Shown here: piece by piece, positions 2,050-53,637 of the stretch
How the letters are laid out: every line of letters begins with the position of its first letter
Numbering within the stretch: the first letter of the stretch is position 1
Source: Klebsiella phage KPP2018
Length of the DNA stretch: 64,000 nt
Sequence record: NC_110934.1
Strand: one strand, 5' to 3'
The notes under the pieces: generated by a model
What the model saw: only the letters and a program-made list of their open reading frames with translations
The model's database searches: none
Told to the model about the DNA's origin: nothing
Position numbers and translations under genes: made by a program

Positions 2050-2571
2050 TTAGAAATTTAGCTTCATAGCAAGAAAATTTTTCAAGTTTTCGGTAGACAT
2101 CTCATCCACATCTACAGGAGAAACAAATCCATTTAATTGTCTAGCAAACTTTTCACCAGCAGGATCATTGTCCCCAACAGCTACCAATTTAAAAGGTAGT
2201 AATTTCAGTTGCTTTAATAACGCTTTTCCTGGAGAAGAACCCAACATTGCCAGGGCTGGATAACCCGCATTATGTAATGCAACTGCCTTAAATACAGATT
2301 CAGCAATCAATACTACTTTTTCATCCCCATTGAGAGTTTCTAGTCCCCATACACACTGTGTAGTAGAATAAGTAAAGTATTTAGCTTCAAAGGGGCACTT
2401 ACCATGACCTTTTGGAGCAGAAGGATTATAAGTTTGATAGCCCCTCAACATTCCAGAGAAATCATACAACGGGACTGTTAGCCACCCTTCCGGACTTAAC
2501 CAGCAATGATATTTATCTGTATCAAATCCTCTAGATAAGAGGTGCTGTGTTAGCTCATCAACATTCATATT
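2050..2571 (-). CDS. Toprim-domain protein (DnaG-primase-like Toprim: E in IAES, DxD in AVGDNDPAG)
   Basis: ORF track 2050-2619; real start is Met17 (MNVDELTQ..) because the conserved TATAAT+ATAAATTTGAGAGAGG leader ends there. Confidence 0.6.
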   Translation of the reverse strand, partial: NMNVDELTQHLLSRGFDTDKYHCWLSPEGWLTVPLYDFSGMLRGYQTYNPSAPKGHGKCPFEAKYFTYSTTQCVWGLETLNGDEKVVLIAESVFKAVALHNAGYPALAMLGSSPGKALLKQLKLLPFKLVAVGDNDPAGEKFARQLNGFVSPVDVDEMSTENLKNFLAMKLNF

Positions 2572-2663
2572 TGGTTCCTCTCTCAAATTTATAGATATAT
2601 TATACAGAGAATTTAGCATTCAAGCAATCAAATTTTTTAACTTTTTAGAGGAAAATCATAGGG

Positions 2664-2686
2664 CACTTAAGGGTAGCAGATAAGTG
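2664..2686 (+). promoter_or_regulatory. Inverted repeat CACTTAAG-N7-CTTAAGTG-like (CACTTA..TAAGTG), candidate operator upstream of Gly-rich gene promoter
   Basis: cacttaagggtagcagataagtg: 6-bp arms are reverse complements. Confidence 0.3.
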
Positions 2687-2744
2687 GTGAGGACCAAAAT
2701 TTGTGACCCCACTAAAAATCCAGGGGCAATTTTTAAAGACCCCT

Positions 2745-2772
2745 TGACATTTTCGCTGGGGTAGTGTAAAGT
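2745..2772 (+). promoter_or_regulatory. sigma70-like promoter (TTGACA, 16 bp, TAAAGT) for the Gly-rich protein operon; copy 1
   Basis: cccTTGACAttttcgctggggtagtgTAAAGTatatg; not of the conserved phage early-promoter class. Confidence 0.55.
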
Positions 2773-2834
2773 ATATGTTATGGATGAGTGATCAAAGAGA
2801 CACACATTTTCTATATACTAGGAGGTGTCAAAAA

Positions 2835-3611
2835 ATGACAGAAGAAGTAGCTAAGAGTCCTGAGACCGTCGCTAGCGTTGCAGCAGAACTGCACCGTCAC
2901 GAGGAATCAGATAAGAAAAAGTGGGAGAAGGTCAGAGCCTACGAAGAGAAACATCGTGAACACGATGAAGATGATGAAGAAGATGACGATGATGAGTATT
3001 GTCATAAATATGGAAAACGTAAAATGCAAGAACCAGTAAACGTATTCACTAGTGGCTTCCCTGGCCTAATGGGTGGTTACCCAGCAAACGCAGGTGCTTT
3101 CGGTGGTGAAGGTATGGGACTATTCGGAGCTATCCTAATCGGTGCTCTATTAACAGGCGGATTCGGTGGTTTTGGTGGATTTGGTGGACGTGGTGTAGTT
3201 GGTGAAGGTACCGCAGTTGATGCAGTACTTCAGAACCAAGATACCGCTAGTATTCTAGCAGCTATTAACACTACTCGTACAGAAGCTAACCAGGGTACTG
3301 GAGCTGTTTTAAGCGCAGTTAACAATGGTTTTAGCCAGACATCCCAAAACCAGAGCCGTGATACTCAGTCTGTACTAACTACGATCTATGGTACGGGTGC
3401 TAATCTGTCTAATCAAATCTGCCAGGAAACTCGCAACGTTATTCAGGGTCAGTTCGATCTTTCTCGCCAGATTGATCAATCTTTCGCAGCTAACCAGATA
3501 GCTCGTGCACAAGATAAGTTTGATTCTGCACAGATCGCTTTCCAGCAGACTTTACAAACTAATAACCAGTTTGCCGCTGTTCAGGCTCAGATGTGTGCTA
3601 ACCAGTTATGA
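2835..3611 (+). pseudogene. Truncated copy (258 aa + 1 junction aa) of Gly-zipper/QN-rich membrane protein gene; truncated at repeat boundary 3605/3606
   Basis: RBS AGGAGG 9 nt before ATG 2835; identical to first 257 codons of the 331-aa gene at 32299-33291, then reads L-stop across the junction. Confidence 0.75.
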
Positions 3612-7707: not shown

Positions 7708-8321
7708 TAATTACCTCTCTTATCTTCATTAAGCGCAGCTCCCAACGCCTCCATAATAGCATCTTCTAAACTTCCATGTTTACTAGGATCATTAAAATGA
7801 ATAGCATAAACAGAACTCCTAGAAACTCCAGCATCCGCAGGTGCTACGCTTCGCATATCAGATTCAAAAGCTTCTTGAGTATGCTTTAACTGTACAGAAG
7901 GGCCGTAATCTTCACCAAACTTGTATGACTGCGTACTACTTATCACACCCCCACAAGGAACATTGTGCATATCCGACATTAATCTTTTATCGGAGTTATT
8001 CAGCATTGCGATTGGCCCTGACTGCCACGGATCTCGAATAGTTACTGGAGTACTGGGGCGGTTCACTTCAGCCTTCACAAGTTTGTACCCTGCATCGATT
8101 AATGCGTTAATTAGATTATCAGCTGGGATGCGAGCCTTGCCAAAAATCTTACGAGCATCTTCGAGCTTATCCTCAAGATCTTTACATGCTCTAAGGTCAG
8201 TGTGTGCAAATGTTAGCTTCATAGATTTAAATTGTACAGTAGCAGTTAAATCTTTAAAGCTATAATCCCATGTGTTCAGTTCATGATCCGGTACTACTTG
8301 AATAGGTTGTTGTGCAAACAT
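7707..8321 (-). CDS. hypothetical protein (204 aa)
   Basis: ORF track. Confidence 0.6.
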   Translation of the reverse strand: MFAQQPIQVVPDHELNTWDYSFKDLTATVQFKSMKLTFAHTDLRACKDLEDKLEDARKIFGKARIPADNLINALIDAGYKLVKAEVNRPSTPVTIRDPWQSGPIAMLNNSDKRLMSDMHNVPCGGVISSTQSYKFGEDYGPSVQLKHTQEAFESDMRSVAPADAGVSRSSVYAIHFNDPSKHGSLEDAIMEALGAALNEDKRGN

Positions 8322-8506
8322 TATATATTCTCCAGTTTGTCTAACAGTTTATGAGCTGCGATGTTATATTGAAAGAGTTCATTATTGAGAATTTCATTCT
8401 CACAGGTTAACTCTAGATTCTTAGTATTGAGGCGACTGCAAATCAGTATCAGTCCCAGGATTATTAGGAGTGAGCCTCCTAGTAATACAAGAAGTAATGT
8501 TTCCAT
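8321..8506 (-). CDS. small membrane protein (61 aa)
   Basis: ORF track; single hydrophobic helix. Confidence 0.5.
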   Translation of the reverse strand: METLLLVLLGGSLLIILGLILICSRLNTKNLELTCENEILNNELFQYNIAAHKLLDKLENI

Positions 8507-8739
8507 TATTTAATTCCCATGTAACGTTTGAGATATCCGATGAAGTCTTCCGCTGTATGCTCTACGCTACCTTGAGCTACGAATAGCTTGAGAGCTTCAC
8601 GTTGTAGTTTGAGAGCAGCTAACTCACCCCGTAATTTTATCAGATCTTCTGCTAGTTCTCTAGCTCTACGCATAATAACAAAAGATACAAGTACTACGAT
8701 GAATAACATAACTACTAAAATAATTGCTATGATTTCCAT
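8506..8739 (-). CDS. membrane protein (77 aa) with C-terminal coiled coil
   Basis: ORF track; N-terminal TM helix IIAIILVVMLFIVVLVSFVIM. Confidence 0.5.
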   Translation of the reverse strand: MEIIAIILVVMLFIVVLVSFVIMRRARELAEDLIKLRGELAALKLQREALKLFVAQGSVEHTAEDFIGYLKRYMGIK

Positions 8740-9017
8740 ATTAACATCCAGCTTTTATCACACATTTGGGCATGGTCTATCAGTTCATTCATTGATGTAT
8801 TGTTATCATAAATGCACTCTAGTATATACCTTCTATCAAATTCGTCAACCAAATATTCTACGTTATTTATTACTACTTTATACAGATCTGGGACTAGAGA
8901 GCATGTATTTGGTACGGGGCGACTGCTTAAGTCTATTTCGTTTTTACCCCATTCTGTTTTAAATAGTTTGTTACTAAGTGCTGCTAATGGGTTTGACCAC
9001 ACAATATAGCTACTCAC
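8727..9017 (-). CDS. hypothetical protein (96 aa)
   Basis: ORF track. Confidence 0.5.
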   Translation of the reverse strand: MSSYIVWSNPLAALSNKLFKTEWGKNEIDLSSRPVPNTCSLVPDLYKVVINNVEYLVDEFDRRYILECIYDNNTSMNELIDHAQMCDKSWMLIWKS

Positions 9018-9453
9018 TATTTATCTCCCTTCTTAACTTTGAAAACTTATTATACCAAACTATATGATTATCGTCAATTACAAATTTATGATAACATGCT
9101 GGCACGGTATAAGTTCCATAATCCGTGACACGCTGCACAACCTTGTGTGCACACAGTCGACAACCATGCCCTTCTAAATGAGATCTAGCAGTTTGCCAGT
9201 AATACCCTTCATGATCTGGGCAATAGATCTCGACTTGCTGTTGCATTGTTTTATAATTTACACGCTCATACCCAAAGAAAGCTCCATGAACTGCAACAGC
9301 TTTCTTGATAAATATAAGGTTTAGTGCTTCTTGCTGAAAGTCGGGATGTAGCTGCTTAATCTTAGTTCTATTAATAGATCCATCCGATTTGATAAACCTA
9401 TTTATTGGGAAGTTGTTAGCTTCCTCGATTAGTAATTCATTTACTTTTTCTCT
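9010..9453 (-). CDS. Cys/His-rich putative zinc-binding protein (possible HNH-like nuclease; ..YCPDHEGYYWQTARSHLEGHGCRLCAH..)
   Basis: ORF track 9010-9558; shortened to Met36 to avoid 100-nt overlap with next gene. Confidence 0.4.
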   Translation of the reverse strand, partial: REKVNELLIEEANNFPINRFIKSDGSINRTKIKQLHPDFQQEALNLIFIKKAVAVHGAFFGYERVNYKTMQQQVEIYCPDHEGYYWQTARSHLEGHGCRLCAHKVVQRVTDYGTYTVPACYHKFVIDDNHIVWYNKFSKLRREINSE

Positions 9454-9457
9454 CATA

Positions 9458-9682
9458 TTAGATATTCTCACACCTAAGGTAGAAACATTCGTAAGCATCA
9501 CCAGTAAACTCTTTACCTTGTAGTATACATTTAGCCTGGTCTTCTGGTACTCCGGCATCTAATAATTGTTGTTTACTTGGCTTTTCAGCGAATACCTTTA
9601 CAAAATATTCACCATCCTGATTATACTCATTTATATCTCTAGTAAGGACATATACTTGCATTTGAAATTCCTTGAAACACAA
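9458..9682 (-). CDS. hypothetical protein (74 aa)
   Basis: ORF track. Confidence 0.45.
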   Translation of the reverse strand: MCFKEFQMQVYVLTRDINEYNQDGEYFVKVFAEKPSKQQLLDAGVPEDQAKCILQGKEFTGDAYECFYLRCENI

Positions 9683-9715
9683 AAGGCCAGAACAATTAAG
9701 TCCTGGCCTCTAGAA

Positions 9716-10153
9716 TTAATGAAGTTGTTTACCACTTCTTAACATAGTGGCCGTTTCCATAAGATTTAACGTTGTATCACGCTTTTTGATTTGTTTGTCG
9801 AGTTCATCGGTGCGTTTGCCAATGTAAGCGTTAATAGCCATATTCATAGCTGAGGCGAGATCTTCTTTGGTTATCTCTTCATCATCTAAGGCTAATTTAG
9901 CCAAAGAATCGAACGCAATAGAAAGTCCTATAAGATCTGAGGTTTCACTAGCTAAGATGGGATCAATATTATCTATTGTTACTTCTAACATAGAGTTAAC
10001 AATATCTTCTCCGTCTACTAGACCAGATTCAATATTACTCTCCCATTCCTTCATCTGCTCCAGCAATGGATTTTTCTTTTCTGTCATGGTAGAGATTTCC
10101 TGTGTCAGTTGGTAAGAAGGACGATTGAGCTTTAGGTGGATGTTGTTTAGCAA
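9716..10153 (-). CDS. hypothetical acidic protein (145 aa; true start probably internal Met)
   Basis: ORF track; overlaps next ORF. Confidence 0.5.
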   Translation of the reverse strand: MLNNIHLKLNRPSYQLTQEISTMTEKKNPLLEQMKEWESNIESGLVDGEDIVNSMLEVTIDNIDPILASETSDLIGLSIAFDSLAKLALDDEEITKEDLASAMNMAINAYIGKRTDELDKQIKKRDTTLNLMETATMLRSGKQLH

Positions 10154-38786: not shown

Positions 38787-39488
38787 TCAAATTTTCATTT
38801 TTTCGATCATAGCTGCAACACAATAGCTTTCAACTAAGGCATCAAATGCAGGATCATGCTTAACCGGATAGATCCCATAACGAATAGTGTCCATCTTCTC
38901 CATTTTAGCTATTGCCCAGCTAATACCTTCGGTCTCTAGAGCTTTATAACTGTATCCAGCTTGCATCCAGAGATTACGAAGAGATCGAACATTACCCAAA
39001 TTCCAGAATTTCCACGGAACTACCTCTTCATTGGTTCCAGCATGGAACGTGTTTGCAGAGTAGATAGTCATATCAAACTCTGGGCCATTGCCATAATACA
39101 AAGCGTTTTCGCCTAGAGCCAACTCCATAATATTTTGGGCCATAGAGAAGGCAGCATAGTTTGAGCCTAATTTATTAGTGCAATGATGTTTACCATTTTG
39201 GAAGGCAATCAGTTTTGGATTACGTTCCTTCATAGCTTCCATAATGTGGATAGCAGACGGGCTATTTTTAGCTTGATCCATCCAGAATGCTAGAGTAGAT
39301 GCTGTAACTTTAGCACCAGAATTAAGCTGATCTTGTACATCCAAAGTAACAAATACTAGATCAGGGTCTTTATCAATTCCATGCATAGCCACAAAAGCGA
39401 AAGAAGGCATTGCGATATGAGTAGTACCACAATCTCCTGGAGTTCCTAGAGATTCAATATCTAGCATACCAAATGGTTTTACTTTCAT
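38787..39488 (-). CDS. DnaQ-like DEDDh 3'-5' exonuclease
   Basis: Exo I LDIESLG, Exo II ..GPEFD.., Exo III VKHDPAFDAL (H-x4-D). Confidence 0.6.
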   Translation of the reverse strand: MKVKPFGMLDIESLGTPGDCGTTHIAMPSFAFVAMHGIDKDPDLVFVTLDVQDQLNSGAKVTASTLAFWMDQAKNSPSAIHIMEAMKERNPKLIAFQNGKHHCTNKLGSNYAAFSMAQNIMELALGENALYYGNGPEFDMTIYSANTFHAGTNEEVVPWKFWNLGNVRSLRNLWMQAGYSYKALETEGISWAIAKMEKMDTIRYGIYPVKHDPAFDALVESYCVAAMIEKMKI

Positions 39489-40074: not shown

Positions 40075-40590
40075 TTACTTCGCTTTACGCTTGCGAGCTG
40101 GTTTAGCAGATTTACGAGCGGAATCACCCGTGAACTTAATGCCTACACCGTAACACAGAGCACGAACATTATCTTTACTATACTCTACGCCAAAGATATT
40201 TGGTTTAACAGAACCAAACTGTCCACGAGTATCACGCAATACATCTGCTGTTGGTTTACGCTTCTGGTTAACTGCCTTCTCATAGTCTTTCATAGACATA
40301 CCATTACGAGAGAACAATTCAGCCCCAGCGTTGAAGCTCAGGGAAACTGGGACAGATTTGTGGCCGTAATTTTCTACATACATAACCATTTTGTAGGATT
40401 TACGGGTCGCATTTTTAGCCTTAGGCTTCTGACGAATCGGAGCCGGATTATTCAGTGCTTGAGCAGCCTGAGCATCGGTAGGATGCTTACGCAGATGGCG
40501 TTCCAGACGAGCTTTGCGATTAGCCTCGGTCTGCGGGAAAGTTTTAACTGCCGGAGCTGCTTGAGTTTTTGCGTTTTTCTGCTTAGCCAT
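40075..40590 (-). CDS. highly basic protein with Lys/Arg-rich termini (171 aa; possible DNA-binding)
   Basis: ORF track; N- and C-terminal KAK/RKRKAK tracts. Confidence 0.5.
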   Translation of the reverse strand: MAKQKNAKTQAAPAVKTFPQTEANRKARLERHLRKHPTDAQAAQALNNPAPIRQKPKAKNATRKSYKMVMYVENYGHKSVPVSLSFNAGAELFSRNGMSMKDYEKAVNQKRKPTADVLRDTRGQFGSVKPNIFGVEYSKDNVRALCYGVGIKFTGDSARKSAKPARKRKAK

Positions 40591-40665
40591 TATTTGTTTT
40601 CCTTTTTGTTTATCAATTTATGAAGTATATTATACGAGAATTTGAAGCGTTTAGCAAATGAATTT

Positions 40666-41115
40666 TTAATTTATTAACTGTAAGCTTCTTTTAATTTCAG
40701 ACCTTACCTGCATCAAAAGAACTCCTAAAGTATTATCCCCGATGCCTCGGCAAACACCCCAATATGTATCTCCCCAGGTATTTCCTTCGATCAAAGTTGC
40801 ATTTTTTGTTGCTAACAGTTTGTCTCTCAAATCAGGAATTGCAAACTTTAACCGTAAAAGCTCTAGCATTACATCATCTTTTACCTTATCCCAGTCATGG
40901 CGCAGAGTTAATTTACGTCCTCTACGTTTGGCAACTCCTGCGTTTAGAGAGCGTAGTACATGAGCTACATCATCTTTTTGGTCTGATTTCATAGCCTGAA
41001 AAGCATGTTCTACAGTATCAGCATGCCATATTTCATTTAGATATTCGAAAGTAATTGGTGATAAATAAAAGTTTGATAAGAAACTATAAGTACCTTTAAA
41101 TTCAGTAATCTTCAT
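40666..41115 (-). CDS. NADAR (YbiA/DUF1768) domain protein
   Basis: N-terminal FKGTYSFLSNFY and ..GNTWGDTYWGVC.. match NADAR family signatures. Confidence 0.65.
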   Translation of the reverse strand: MKITEFKGTYSFLSNFYLSPITFEYLNEIWHADTVEHAFQAMKSDQKDDVAHVLRSLNAGVAKRRGRKLTLRHDWDKVKDDVMLELLRLKFAIPDLRDKLLATKNATLIEGNTWGDTYWGVCRGIGDNTLGVLLMQVRSEIKRSLQLIN

Positions 41116-41396
41116 TTTTTACGCCCCGCATCTTTAGCCTCCTCGGCTGTATAGATATACTGATAAGCCCCTTTGGAGTAGGCTGGAGCAGTACACATTT
41201 TCTTACGCTCAATCTCTTCTTGAGCTTTTCTTTCGCGTTCAGCTAATTCTTCGTCCAGATAAACTAAACGTTGTTCTGGAGGAGGTGGAAGTCGTGTCTC
41301 TGGCTCACCAATATTAGCCTTTCTTATTTGACGAGGTGATTGTGCACGTTTTCTCAATGGTTTAAATCCTAATGAATTTGAGTTATAAATCCACAT
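41112..41396 (-). CDS. hypothetical protein (94 aa)
   Basis: ORF track. Confidence 0.5.
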   Translation of the reverse strand: MWIYNSNSLGFKPLRKRAQSPRQIRKANIGEPETRLPPPPEQRLVYLDEELAERERKAQEEIERKKMCTAPAYSKGAYQYIYTAEEAKDAGRKK

Positions 41397-41472
41397 AAAG
41401 CCCTCCTCACTTTCAATACGAATATTATACTAAATTAGAGGGCTTTAAGCAAGAAAATTTTTAATTTATTTA

Positions 41473-42323: not shown

Positions 42324-43177
42324 TTACACAGTGAATGGATATGCAATAGCAGGGTGGTGTTCGTAACCACGAACAGTAAAATCATCCTTACTTACCCAGG
42401 TCAATACATCCTCCAGAGTTTGGATATTTGGATTGATTTCTAGAGTAGGAGGTGCAAAAGGTTCACGATCGAATTGCTTATGCTCCATCAAAACATTATA
42501 CTGATCCTCATAGATATGAAGATTGATAATCTTCTGGCGTGCAATTCCTGGTTTAAGGCCTGTAATCTGTGCCATTAATGCTAGAAGCGTATAGCACTGA
42601 ACCATGTTAAATACTTGGCCTAACAGGAAGTCATTAGATCTCTGGAAAGAGTTCAGGTATAATGTATCTCCCAAAATAGAGAACTGATGGGTGTGCATAC
42701 ATGGACGTAAGCAACCCTTTGAGAACTCTCCCGGATTCCAGAAGGTTAGAATTTCCCCCGATCATCAATGCCCTTCTTCAGATTATGATAAATCTTGGCT
42801 AGTTGGTCAAACATAAGACCATCGGAATTAGTCCACTGACGTCCTTGAACACCATAGACTCGTCCCATATCATCCTCACCTTTACGGTATGGATTGTCTA
42901 GCCAAGCTAAGTTTTCATTTGCATTAGCATTCCATGTGTTAACACCAATAGCGCGGAATTGTGCTGCTGAGTCATACCCACGTAGATACCCAATCATTTC
43001 CATTATTGCTTGTTTTGCAAACGCCTTACGGGTAGTAATAAGGGGAAATTCACCTGCACCTACGTTAAAAGTAAAATCTGCGTCAATAATAGTGAGGCAA
43101 CGAACCCCTGTTCTAGGATTCGTTACCCACTGACCCTCTGATAGAATACGTTTTCCAACTTCGATATACTGATCCAT
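42324..43177 (-). pseudogene. thyA: thymidylate synthase ThyA interrupted by a frameshift (N-terminal part 42746-43177, C-terminal part 42324-42760 in the -1 frame)
   Basis: N-ORF ends ..DDRGKF*; other frame continues ..[31 protein letters not shown] (ThyA AWNP..PCH..QFYV core); shift at a C5/G5 run 42755-42759. Confidence 0.8.
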
Positions 43178-51313: not shown

Positions 51314-51503
51314 GGGTTTAAACGCCGCTTTGGAAAACGCATTAATGCAGCACTGGGAAACTGGCTATAGGGATGGTGTTGAATCTTGCGCTACTATGCT
51401 AGAAGTTATTGCTAATACCTTAATGGAGAAAGGTAATAAAGAATTAGCTGAGCTGTTAGATAGTATTGTGCAAAACTTTAGAGAACAGGTGAAAAATGCG
51501 TAG
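51282..51503 (+). CDS. hypothetical protein (73 aa)
   Basis: ORF track. Confidence 0.45.
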   Translation: MAFSKPMLPDKGLNAALENALMQHWETGYRDGVESCATMLEVIANTLMEKGNKELAELLDSIVQNFREQVKNA

Positions 51504-52311
51504 ATTAATTATTATTAGCGGTGCAGGTTTGAGTGTTGAAAGTGGTGTACGAGCTTTTCGTACTGATACTGCTAGTGGTAAAGCATTGTGGGATGATTAT
51601 GATCTAGAAGAAGTATGTAATATTCATGCCTTTCGTGGTAATTTTTATCATAAAACCCATATGTTTTACAACAAGCGTCGTGAAGAGCTAAAAACTGTTG
51701 AACCCAATCTTGCGCATTTGCGTATTGGTGAATGGTATAAACAATATCCAGGTCAAATAGTAAACTTGACTACCAATGTTGATGACCTTATTGAGCGTGC
51801 TGGCGTTCCACATAGTGACATTCTGCACATTCACGGATATTTAAAAGAGGTTGTTGTAGCTGATAGCTACAATAGTAGCAATAAACGGATTATTGATGTA
51901 GGATACAATTCTATTGATCCAGATGATTATAAATGGGTTAAACCTAATGTAATCTTCTTTGGAGAGCATGCTCCAGCATATGCGGAGATGTACAATGTTT
52001 TTGATGGTATTACCAGTCAAGATATGATCATTGTGGTTGGTTGCTCTAACCAAGTAATTAACTTCTACTGGGAATTATTTCCTGTTCTTAATTTGACTGC
52101 TGCCAAGCTAATGGTTGTTAACTACTATGATAGTGCCCTAGCGGTGGAACCGGGCTATCAAGGTATGACTCGTAGTGAGATGTACCAGCTGGAAGAACGC
52201 GGTATCCCTTACTGGAGTAAAGGTGCGGTAGATGCTTTCAGTGATCCTGATTTTATTGCTCGTGTAGAAGCTCATTTAGGGGGTAGACCTTATGTATCAG
52301 GAAATAAGTAA
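51496..52311 (+). CDS. Sir2-family (sirtuin-like) NAD-dependent protein
   Basis: N-terminal GAGLSVESGVRAFR (cf. sirtuin GAGIS(A/T)ESGI(P/R)(T/D)FR), ..HG.. and VVGCS (small-domain) motifs. Confidence 0.7.
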   Translation: MRRLIIISGAGLSVESGVRAFRTDTASGKALWDDYDLEEVCNIHAFRGNFYHKTHMFYNKRREELKTVEPNLAHLRIGEWYKQYPGQIVNLTTNVDDLIERAGVPHSDILHIHGYLKEVVVADSYNSSNKRIIDVGYNSIDPDDYKWVKPNVIFFGEHAPAYAEMYNVFDGITSQDMIIVVGCSNQVINFYWELFPVLNLTAAKLMVVNYYDSALAVEPGYQGMTRSEMYQLEERGIPYWSKGAVDAFSDPDFIARVEAHLGGRPYVSGNK

Positions 52312-52804
52312 TACTCCAATTATTTTTCTAGACATTGATGGGGTGCTCAATTCGAGCATCTCCCACCATCATGCACCCGATGATGAAAAGATTTTCTTTG
52401 GAAGTGACTGGGTTTTCAAACCGCTTCTCAAAGCTTTTCAGGACTTTATTCGCCCTTCTCCGATAATGATTGTTGGAGTATCATCTTGGTTCTCTGTTAG
52501 AAATGAGATGGAGAACGTTCAGATTATGACCGGATTAGGTCTTATCGATCGCTTTCTTGGTACAACGGATTTTACTGGGGGTGGATTATCTAGGGGTAAT
52601 TCTGTTCTTCGCTTCGTTGAAAAGCATAGGCTCAAACATTGGTGTGTGCTTGATGATGCGGGTGCTATGATGTATCAGTATCCAACGGTTATAGTCAACG
52701 GTAGGACTGGGATAAATCTTCAAGATTTAAAAGCTGTTAGCTATATGCTAGAATTTAGCCCAGATCTTGAAATGTGTAAGTCCTTACAACAATTTAAGGT
52801 GTAA
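52292..52804 (+). CDS. HAD-superfamily phosphatase-like protein
   Basis: Motif I IIFLDIDGVLN; 20-nt overlap with Sir2 gene. Confidence 0.55.
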   Translation: MYQEISNTPIIFLDIDGVLNSSISHHHAPDDEKIFFGSDWVFKPLLKAFQDFIRPSPIMIVGVSSWFSVRNEMENVQIMTGLGLIDRFLGTTDFTGGGLSRGNSVLRFVEKHRLKHWCVLDDAGAMMYQYPTVIVNGRTGINLQDLKAVSYMLEFSPDLEMCKSLQQFKV

Positions 52805-52806
52805 AT

Positions 52807-53235
52807 ATGTTTAATAATGTATTCTCTAAAGAAGCTAACCCAATTTTGGTTAACTTTTGGCGTACTCTCCCAGCTAGCCTGTATAATGAGGCTATTAACT
52901 CTTTGAAAATATGGTGTGAGAATAACGAAATCTCCTTTGCTTTTAAAGATGATATTGATGAGGCTCCCTGTATTGGTTTAATTGTTCAGGTAGAGGATGG
53001 TCTTGAAGAGATTGTGGGCTGGAAAGAGTTAGACGAAATGGGCTTAGTTTTTGCGTTAAACTATAAGCTGTTTATGCCTGCTAAGCATCGCCTCGTTGTT
53101 AACTATAAAACTAGTGAATCTCCTGGTTTTCAGGTTAATGAACGTTATGGTTGGTCTTACTCACCGGAAGAAGTAAATGAGGGGATTCAGAAACTTCGAC
53201 GTTTCGGGTATATGATCCCAGGTTTAACTGCCTAA
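52807..53235 (+). CDS. hypothetical protein (142 aa), paralog A
   Basis: Shares DEAPCIGLIV..W.ELDEMGLVFALNYKLF.P..GYMIPGL with the next ORF. Confidence 0.55.
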   Translation: MFNNVFSKEANPILVNFWRTLPASLYNEAINSLKIWCENNEISFAFKDDIDEAPCIGLIVQVEDGLEEIVGWKELDEMGLVFALNYKLFMPAKHRLVVNYKTSESPGFQVNERYGWSYSPEEVNEGIQKLRRFGYMIPGLTA

Positions 53236-53244
53236 GGGGGTATA

Positions 53245-53637
53245 ATGGAACAAGTATATTGGCGTCAGATTGACCCTAGTTTGGTGAAACGTGCGGAGAA
53301 GCTGCTACAACGTTGGTTGGGGGTAGGACAAGCCTCCTTCACTTTTCCTGAGCAGCAAATAGATGACCCCTGTATTGGTGTTTTTCTATCCGGCTACGCG
53401 GGGGAATGGGAATTGGATTGGAATGAATTGTCTGCTATGGGCTTGATTGTTGCCCTAAACTTCTCTTTGTTCCACCCACGTGGTTTGGCCATATGTCGTG
53501 TGCCGGATGATGGTTGTTCGCCCCATCTTTTACAGGTGGAAGATGATATTTGGGAGTACACTCCAGGTATTCTCAAAGAAGCTAAAGAACAATTAAATCG
53601 TGTTGGGATTTATGTTCCAGGCCTAAATGATGAATGA
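53245..53637 (+). CDS. hypothetical protein (130 aa), paralog B
   Basis: DDPCIGVFL..WNELSAMGLIVALNFSLFHP..GIYVPGL; tandem duplicate of 52807-53235. Confidence 0.55.
   Translation: MEQVYWRQIDPSLVKRAEKLLQRWLGVGQASFTFPEQQIDDPCIGVFLSGYAGEWELDWNELSAMGLIVALNFSLFHPRGLAICRVPDDGCSPHLLQVEDDIWEYTPGILKEAKEQLNRVGIYVPGLNDE

Follow-up and report, generated by a model that had tools for sequence, protein, structure and literature searches.

A T5-like phage NADAR gene that is very probably an orthologue of the DarT1 antitoxin AdfN^Bas32

What does a short, stand-alone gene in the early region of a T5-like phage contribute to infection, and is that contribution already known from a relative? The DNA analysed here (the window; 64,000 nucleotides of Klebsiella phage KPP2018, NC_110934.1) comes from a T5-like phage (Demerecviridae, Markadamsvirinae). 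An earlier note made from its letters had picked out one gene as a NADAR-domain protein and a candidate counter-defense factor against DarT-type toxins:

40666..41115, minus strand: adfN-type NADAR gene, an ATG-to-stop ORF of 149 aa, stop codon included

These coordinates are exactly those that had been proposed, and the translation carries both of the motifs quoted, FKGTYSFLSNFY at residues 6-17 and GNTWGDTYWGV at residues 111-121.

The family assignment was correct. The protein matches the Pfam NADAR profile PF08719 (DUF1768) at 78.9 bits (E=7e-22; gathering cutoff 35.1 bits) in a full-length alignment (protein 9-142 against profile positions 9-163 of 163), and the ORF matches PHROG 1017 at E=8e-45. 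This is a NADAR ORF whose family match lies far above chance. The more specific NCBIfam model "DS32_2 NADAR family anti-phage protein" was rejected, since the score of 44.7 bits fell short of its cutoff of 240. No Rfam family was found on either strand between 39000 and 42500, and antisense ORFs inside the NADAR gene had no support.

An AlphaFold2 model built on 37 homologues (mean pLDDT 97.1) has strands at residues 18-25 and 28-34 plus helices, and shows the YbiA-like fold, an alpha-helical core with two flanking small beta-sheets. When the model was searched with Foldseek, the significant PDB matches were NADAR structures only: E. coli YbiA (2B3W; TM 0.82, 36% identity, probability 1.00) and the Phytophthora nicotianae NADAR with ADP-ribose (8BAU; TM 0.75, probability 1.00). 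The match to the DarT1-linked NADAR of G. lovleyi (8BAT) was weak (TM 0.48, E=0.39). YbiA was also the best PDB match by sequence (E=3.6e-15).

The minus-strand gene order at the locus is thymidylate synthase, a small ORF, RNase H, a 94-aa ORF, NADAR and a 171-aa DUF7022 protein, and the 3 kb around NADAR are 97-98% identical to many T5-like Salmonella and E. coli phages. The features that frame the gene are:

41112..41396, minus strand: 94-aa T5.090 orthologue, upstream of NADAR, 90% identical to T5.090
41424..41452, minus strand: putative sigma-70 early promoter of the T5.090-like/NADAR pair, TTGCTT-17 nt-TATAAT, read by eye
40629..40657, minus strand: promoter-like site equivalent to T5 P-H 207, TTGCTA-17 nt-TATAAT, found by automatic scan

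The DUF7022 protein (ORF 40075..40590) is the T5.089 orthologue (92% identity). The 94-aa ORF, which had no match in Pfam or NCBIfam, diverges from T5.090 only in its last ~12 residues, where the cassette begins. In T5 itself, T5.090 and T5.089 are separated only by an 83-bp spacer with the annotated promoter P-H 207. The window is identical to T5 through P-H 207, diverges exactly at the NADAR stop (~40667) and becomes T5-like again within the 3'-terminal part of the T5.090-like gene. Because identity to T5 breaks and resumes at these two points, the NADAR gene is a ~450-bp accessory cassette that is absent from T5. Its downstream edge is marked by the promoter-like site at 40629..40657, which drives the T5.089-like gene downstream. 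The "early region" of the earlier note was thus well placed: the gene sits between the T5.090 and T5.089 orthologues, among rnh, thy, frd and nrd, and directly upstream of P-H 207.

The stop codon of the T5.090-like gene overlaps the NADAR start codon (ATGA at 41112-41115), so the two genes are probably co-transcribed and translationally coupled. The promoter-like site at 41424..41452 has an A/T-rich tract upstream and is followed by a strong Shine-Dalgarno sequence, GAGGAGGG. Its -35 hexamer, TTGCTT, matches the consensus at only three of six positions, which is why the site was missing from the automatic promoter scan. Between rnh and T5.090, the annotation of T5 likewise shows a promoter at the corresponding site. 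This agreement and the ATGA overlap make early co-transcription of NADAR with the T5.090-like gene likely.

Two other minus-strand genes nearby deserve mention. The T5.087 orthologue (38787..39488, minus strand) has an Rv2179c-like 3'-5' exoribonuclease domain (PF16473, E=3e-8), and its relatives are labelled either "metallopeptidase" or "exonuclease". The thymidylate synthase gene (42324..43177, minus strand) is split into ORFs of 143 aa (42746..43177) and 124 aa (42324..42698). The frame breaks near 42757-42759 because of a 1-nt deletion relative to phage BB1 (GATCG-GGGG versus GATCGTGGGG), and an error in the sequencing and a genuine pseudogene are the two possible explanations. In phage Bas33, this place is taken by a thymidylate synthase allele that differs considerably.

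Has the function of this protein been determined in a relative? Using the GenBank records of two phages to set orthology, we found that the window protein is identical at 148 of 149 residues to bas33_0070 of HildyBeyeler (Bas33; MZ501074, protein QXV80081.1), with H73 in place of Ser. It is identical at 146 of 149 residues to bas32_0066 of IrisVonRoten (Bas32; MZ501075, protein QXV80247.1), the differences being T9A, H73S and K104E. The separation from these two proteins therefore amounts to one to three substitutions, all at non-conserved positions, since 9, 73 and 104 are variable columns of the family alignment. Both relatives are 450-nt genes coding for 149 aa in Markadamsvirinae, and both occupy a slot identical to that in the window, downstream of rnh (rnh / T5.090-like / NADAR / T5.089-like). 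Salmonella phages SP33, STyj5-1 and X5 encode proteins identical to the window NADAR.

A NADAR search across the BASEL phages was published by Johannesman et al. (Nat Commun 2025; PMC11825919). In it, Bas32 and Bas33, described as "Markadamsvirinae closely related to T5", carry one NADAR apiece, which was named AdfN^Bas32. In E. coli, this protein needed no further phage factor to neutralise DarT1 toxicity, and when it was expressed ectopically, RB69, T5 and Bas25 again plated at full titre on hosts with DarTG1 (PMC11825919). T5, which lacks the cassette, is DarTG1-sensitive in that work and is rescued when AdfN^Bas32 is supplied, while DarTG2, which modifies thymine, was unaffected (PMC11825919). 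As far as the available text goes, AdfN^Bas32 was assayed through ectopic expression only, with no deletion in a native phage (PMC11825919). The same source calls the Bas32 and Bas33 NADARs identical; in their GenBank records, the two differ at two residues (A9/T9 and E104/K104; L005 3642..4091 against L001 6001..6450, in locus coordinates).

The function of this gene is therefore already known, in that it was published in 2025 for an orthologue that is 98-99% identical. What the earlier note had put forward, a counter-defense against guanine ADP-ribosylation by DarT-type toxins, has been demonstrated experimentally for AdfN^Bas32 (PMC11825919). Its wording needs narrowing in one respect: DarT1, which modifies guanine, stands as the target, but DarT2, which modifies thymine, does not. 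The neighbours of the window gene (T5.090-like, the DUF7022 protein and RNase H) have no ART domain, as would be seen for an orphan. From this comparison we conclude that the window gene is very probably the AdfN^Bas32 orthologue, a stand-alone NADAR of minimal core that serves the phage as an orphan antitoxin against DarT1. The H73 allele of the window would be expected to behave like AdfN^Bas32.

[quoted passage not shown] 2023 (PMC11543638). The chain index of PnNADAR equals the numbering of the paper plus 2, an offset that was consistent for all eleven residues named there. The mapped residues of the window protein, their counterparts and the roles reported for those counterparts (PMC11543638) are:

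E36: PnNADAR E43, E. coli C7 E88; distal ribose coordination
K43: PnNADAR K50, E. coli C7 K95; phosphate and adenine contact, essential
K63: PnNADAR K75, E. coli C7 K115; dispensable in vitro, essential for in vivo rescue
R67: PnNADAR R79, no C7 equivalent given; ADPr contact
D74: PnNADAR D86, no C7 equivalent given; ADPr contact
W75: PnNADAR W89, no C7 equivalent given; ADPr contact
E110: PnNADAR E125, E. coli C7 D171; catalytic acidic residue
D116: PnNADAR D130, no C7 equivalent given; ADPr contact
W119: PnNADAR W133, no C7 equivalent given; ADPr contact

All nine are present in the window protein, and E36, K43, K63, E110, D116 and W119 are invariant among 37 homologues that are 47-98% identical to it. 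The protein thus has the Glu and Lys of a NADAR active site (E36 and K43) together with the acidic residue (E110). [quoted passage not shown] Since the catalytic residues are present and invariant across the homologues, the window NADAR most likely works by hydrolysing the N-glycosidic bond that links ADP-ribose to N2 of guanine in single-stranded phage DNA.

In the proposed sequence of events, the gene would be expressed early from the promoter ahead of the T5.090-like gene. As the host toxin DarT1 of DarTG1 writes ADP-ribose on guanine N2 in single-stranded phage DNA, the NADAR would bind the adduct and cut its N-glycosidic bond, with E36 and E110 holding the distal ribose and K43 the diphosphate. 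Removal of the adduct would unblock phage DNA replication and allow infection to proceed in DarTG1 hosts. The thymine adducts made by DarT2 would not be expected to serve as substrates.

How does the protein relate to the other NADARs that act on DarT1? DarG1 (BC4488 subfamily) likewise reverses guanine N2 ADP-ribosylation and neutralises DarT1, and the window protein retains, as K63, the Lys that corresponds to K115 of E. coli C7. However, DarG1 is encoded beside DarT1, whereas no DarT or ART gene is adjacent to the window NADAR, and the catalytic residue is Asp171 in E. coli C7 but Glu110 here. DarG1 also has a basic N-terminal beta1-beta2-alpha1 extension, proposed to bind ssDNA, that is absent from the window protein, in which the core motif begins at residue 6; this absence speaks to some extent against an anti-DarT1 role. 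The weak fold match to 8BAT reported above separates the two further.

T4 gp30.3 (AdfN^T4) is also a phage NADAR that counters DarTG1 and is G-specific. In BLASTP, it had no detectable pairwise similarity to the window protein (E=1.2). The third catalytic residue and the K63 position, Glu and Lys in the window protein, are His and Gln in T4-type NADARs. AdfN^T4 does not neutralise DarT1 by itself but depends on further phage factors (PMC11825919). These differences in sequence, catalytic residue, K63 position and need for phage factors point to independent acquisition of AdfN^T4 and the window NADAR. The same paper places AdfN^Bas32 near two archaeal NADARs and concludes that phages co-opted NADARs several times (PMC11825919). 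Membership in the DarG1 or the T4-type branch was rejected for the window protein on the basis of the catalytic residue, the missing N-terminal extension and the absent similarity.

The AdfN^Bas60 type, represented by bas61_0107 of EmilieFrey (Bas61; 183 aa), neutralises DarT1 alone (PMC11825919) and shares the Glu and Lys catalytic residues and the K63-equivalent Lys. It differs in being only 23% identical to the window protein, in its PnNADAR-like insertions and in belonging to a phi92-like phage with another genomic context. In the Bas61 genome (locus L012), three adjacent genes are annotated at 7876..10091 as macrodomain protein, phosphoribosyltransferase and HAD-like protein, another NAD/ADP-ribose-related cluster that lies ~18 kb from the Bas61 NADAR.

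The cassette is a minority trait among T5-like phages. Of 446 phage-collection records with the T5.089-like neighbour, 96 (roughly a fifth) have the NADAR, as counted by tblastn with one place per record; in 94 it is at least 95% identical and in 2 about 60%. Epseptimavirus UTK0009, a Salmonella phage, has a 60% identical NADAR (2489..2938 of locus L004) that is shifted by one slot and sits immediately behind RNase H, ahead of the T5.090-like gene. The shift suggests either a separate insertion (a second acquisition) or a rearrangement within this variable part of the early region. The 94-aa variant of the T5.090-like protein accompanies NADAR, and a 92-aa variant is found in phages without it, such as T5.

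Public annotation of these genes is uneven. The NADAR is variously labelled "swarming motility protein", "GTP cyclohydrolase II", "N-glycosidase", "antitoxin-like enzyme" and "hypothetical", and the "swarming motility protein" label is also borne in several records by the T5.089-like DUF7022 neighbour, which is unrelated to NADAR. The 90%-identity protein cluster that contains the window NADAR also holds T5.090-like proteins of 92-94 aa, and this mixture is probably an artefact of overlapping or fused gene calls.

The counter-defense reading had also been linked to Sir2-like and HAD genes about 10 kb away. Both genes are real: the Sir2-like gene (51496..52311, plus strand) matches PF02146 at E=1e-24, and the HAD gene (52292..52804, plus strand) matches HAD_SAK_2 at E=7.5e-20. 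They form part of a divergent unit on the strand opposite to NADAR, and their T5 counterparts are T5.102 and T5.105. The suggestion that they fit with NADAR was not supported, since T5 has both genes but no NADAR, so there is no co-variation; a functional module of NADAR, Sir2 and HAD was rejected for this reason. The two genes belong to a four-gene block (51496..53637, plus strand) of Sir2, HAD_SAK_2 (the "Swiss Army Knife RNA repair" HAD domain) and two DUF7415 genes (52807..53235 and 53245..53637). This block is orthologous to T5.102 and T5.105-T5.107 and is present in T5 independently of NADAR.

Why should some NADARs neutralise DarT1 alone and others not? YbiA and gp30.3 hydrolyse G-ADPr in vitro but fail alone to rescue DarT1 toxicity in cells, and the K115A mutant of the E. 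coli C7 NADAR likewise combines in vitro activity with a lack of in vivo rescue (PMC11543638). We compared the K63 position (window ~40927..40929) across proteins, using loci L006 (3469..3951), L007 (4308..4766) and L012 (28085..28636). It is Lys in the window protein, bas61_0107 and PnNADAR, Ala in YbiA and Gln in T4 gp30.3. Lys is thus present in the three NADARs that neutralise DarT1 alone, namely DarG1, the AdfN^Bas32 type and the AdfN^Bas60 type. Judged by alignment, the association of a K63-equivalent Lys with self-sufficient rescue is a correlation across five proteins that goes beyond the published papers. It is a tentative proposal, on the doubtful side, that K63 makes the NADAR a self-sufficient DarT1 antitoxin and that the Glu-type site also removes cytidine-linked and RNA-linked ADPr. 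The second part is raised because the YbiA-type Glu active site is kept.

A wider substrate range is also the alternative that fares best against a dedicated anti-DarT1 role. Here the protein would be a broader de-ADP-ribosylase that acts on cytidine-ADPr, RNA guanosine-ADPr or soluble ADPr-derived signals and so counters further defenses. Glu-bearing enzymes of the YbiA type and of the general "NADAR" type remove C-ADPr and act on RNA, neither of which DarG1 and T4 NADARs do, and the site in the window protein is of the Glu type. Soluble ADPr derivatives may be targets of phage NADARs, as Iyer et al. argue, and Johannesman et al. raise the possibility that certain phage NADARs detoxify further ADP-ribosylating defenses (PMC11825919). 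However, no natural defense system that uses C-ADPr is known in the literature. We regard this broader activity as rather unlikely, and it would add to the anti-DarT1 role, with which it is compatible, rather than replace it.

YbiA, the closest solved structure (36-40% identity), is like the window protein a bare core fold without extensions and has the same E/K/E active site. This resemblance raises the possibility of a metabolic N-glycosidase for riboflavin intermediates or another small-molecule ribosylamine, with any anti-DarT1 activity incidental. Consistent with such a role, YbiA is the best PDB match by both sequence and fold, and E110 aligns with PnNADAR E125 and is Glu as in the YbiA subfamily, not the Asp of DarG1 or the His of the T4 type. 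The protein also matches TIGR02464 (riboflavin biosynthesis intermediates N-glycosidase) at E=3.4e-18, and many database relatives are labelled "ribA/ribD-fused uncharacterized protein". However, the TIGR02464 score of 66.4 bits is below the equivalog-domain cutoff of 73.7 bits. Neither a RibA/RibD fusion or neighbourhood nor the ybiA-dinG-ybiB context was found at the window locus; YbiA shares a chromosomal operon under LexA control with dinG and ybiB, whereas the window gene is in a phage early operon. That YbiA, closest by sequence and fold, does not rescue cells from DarT1 is a point against the anti-DarT1 reading. It also counts against the metabolic reading, since the AdfN^Bas32 orthologue, unlike YbiA, protects three phages from DarTG1 in vivo. 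In addition, the gene is accessory and occurs in about a fifth of T5-like genomes, a distribution that suits counter-defense better than metabolism. A riboflavin-type main function is thus very improbable and was rejected on the sub-cutoff TIGR02464 score, the gene context and the anti-DarT1 phenotype of the orthologue.

Least probable of all, and extremely improbable, is stoichiometric neutralisation of DarT1 by toxin binding, as is thought for AdfA and AdfB. A hint in its favour is C7 K115, which in vivo rescue requires but catalysis does not, so that it may contact DNA or the toxin, and the equivalent K63 is conserved. However, a pure binder would hardly keep its catalytic residues invariant throughout a large family at ~50% identity, all NADARs so far assayed hydrolyse G-ADPr, and the phage NADARs assayed by Johannesman et al. 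are described as having DNA ADP-ribosylglycohydrolase activity (PMC11825919).

Enzymatic reversal of DarT1 modification by an AdfN^Bas32 orthologue remains the preferred reading, and scientifically it brings nothing categorically new; the K63 correlation and the wider substrates are modest leads. If removal of C-ADPr or RNA-linked ADPr were true, T5-like phages that carry the gene would be protected beyond DarTG1. For the family, ~95 T5-like genomes need re-annotation of this gene as an AdfN-type anti-DarTG1 factor. Many T5-like phages are candidates for biocontrol of Salmonella or E. coli, and the presence or absence of the NADAR would offer a simple marker to predict their growth on DarTG1 hosts.
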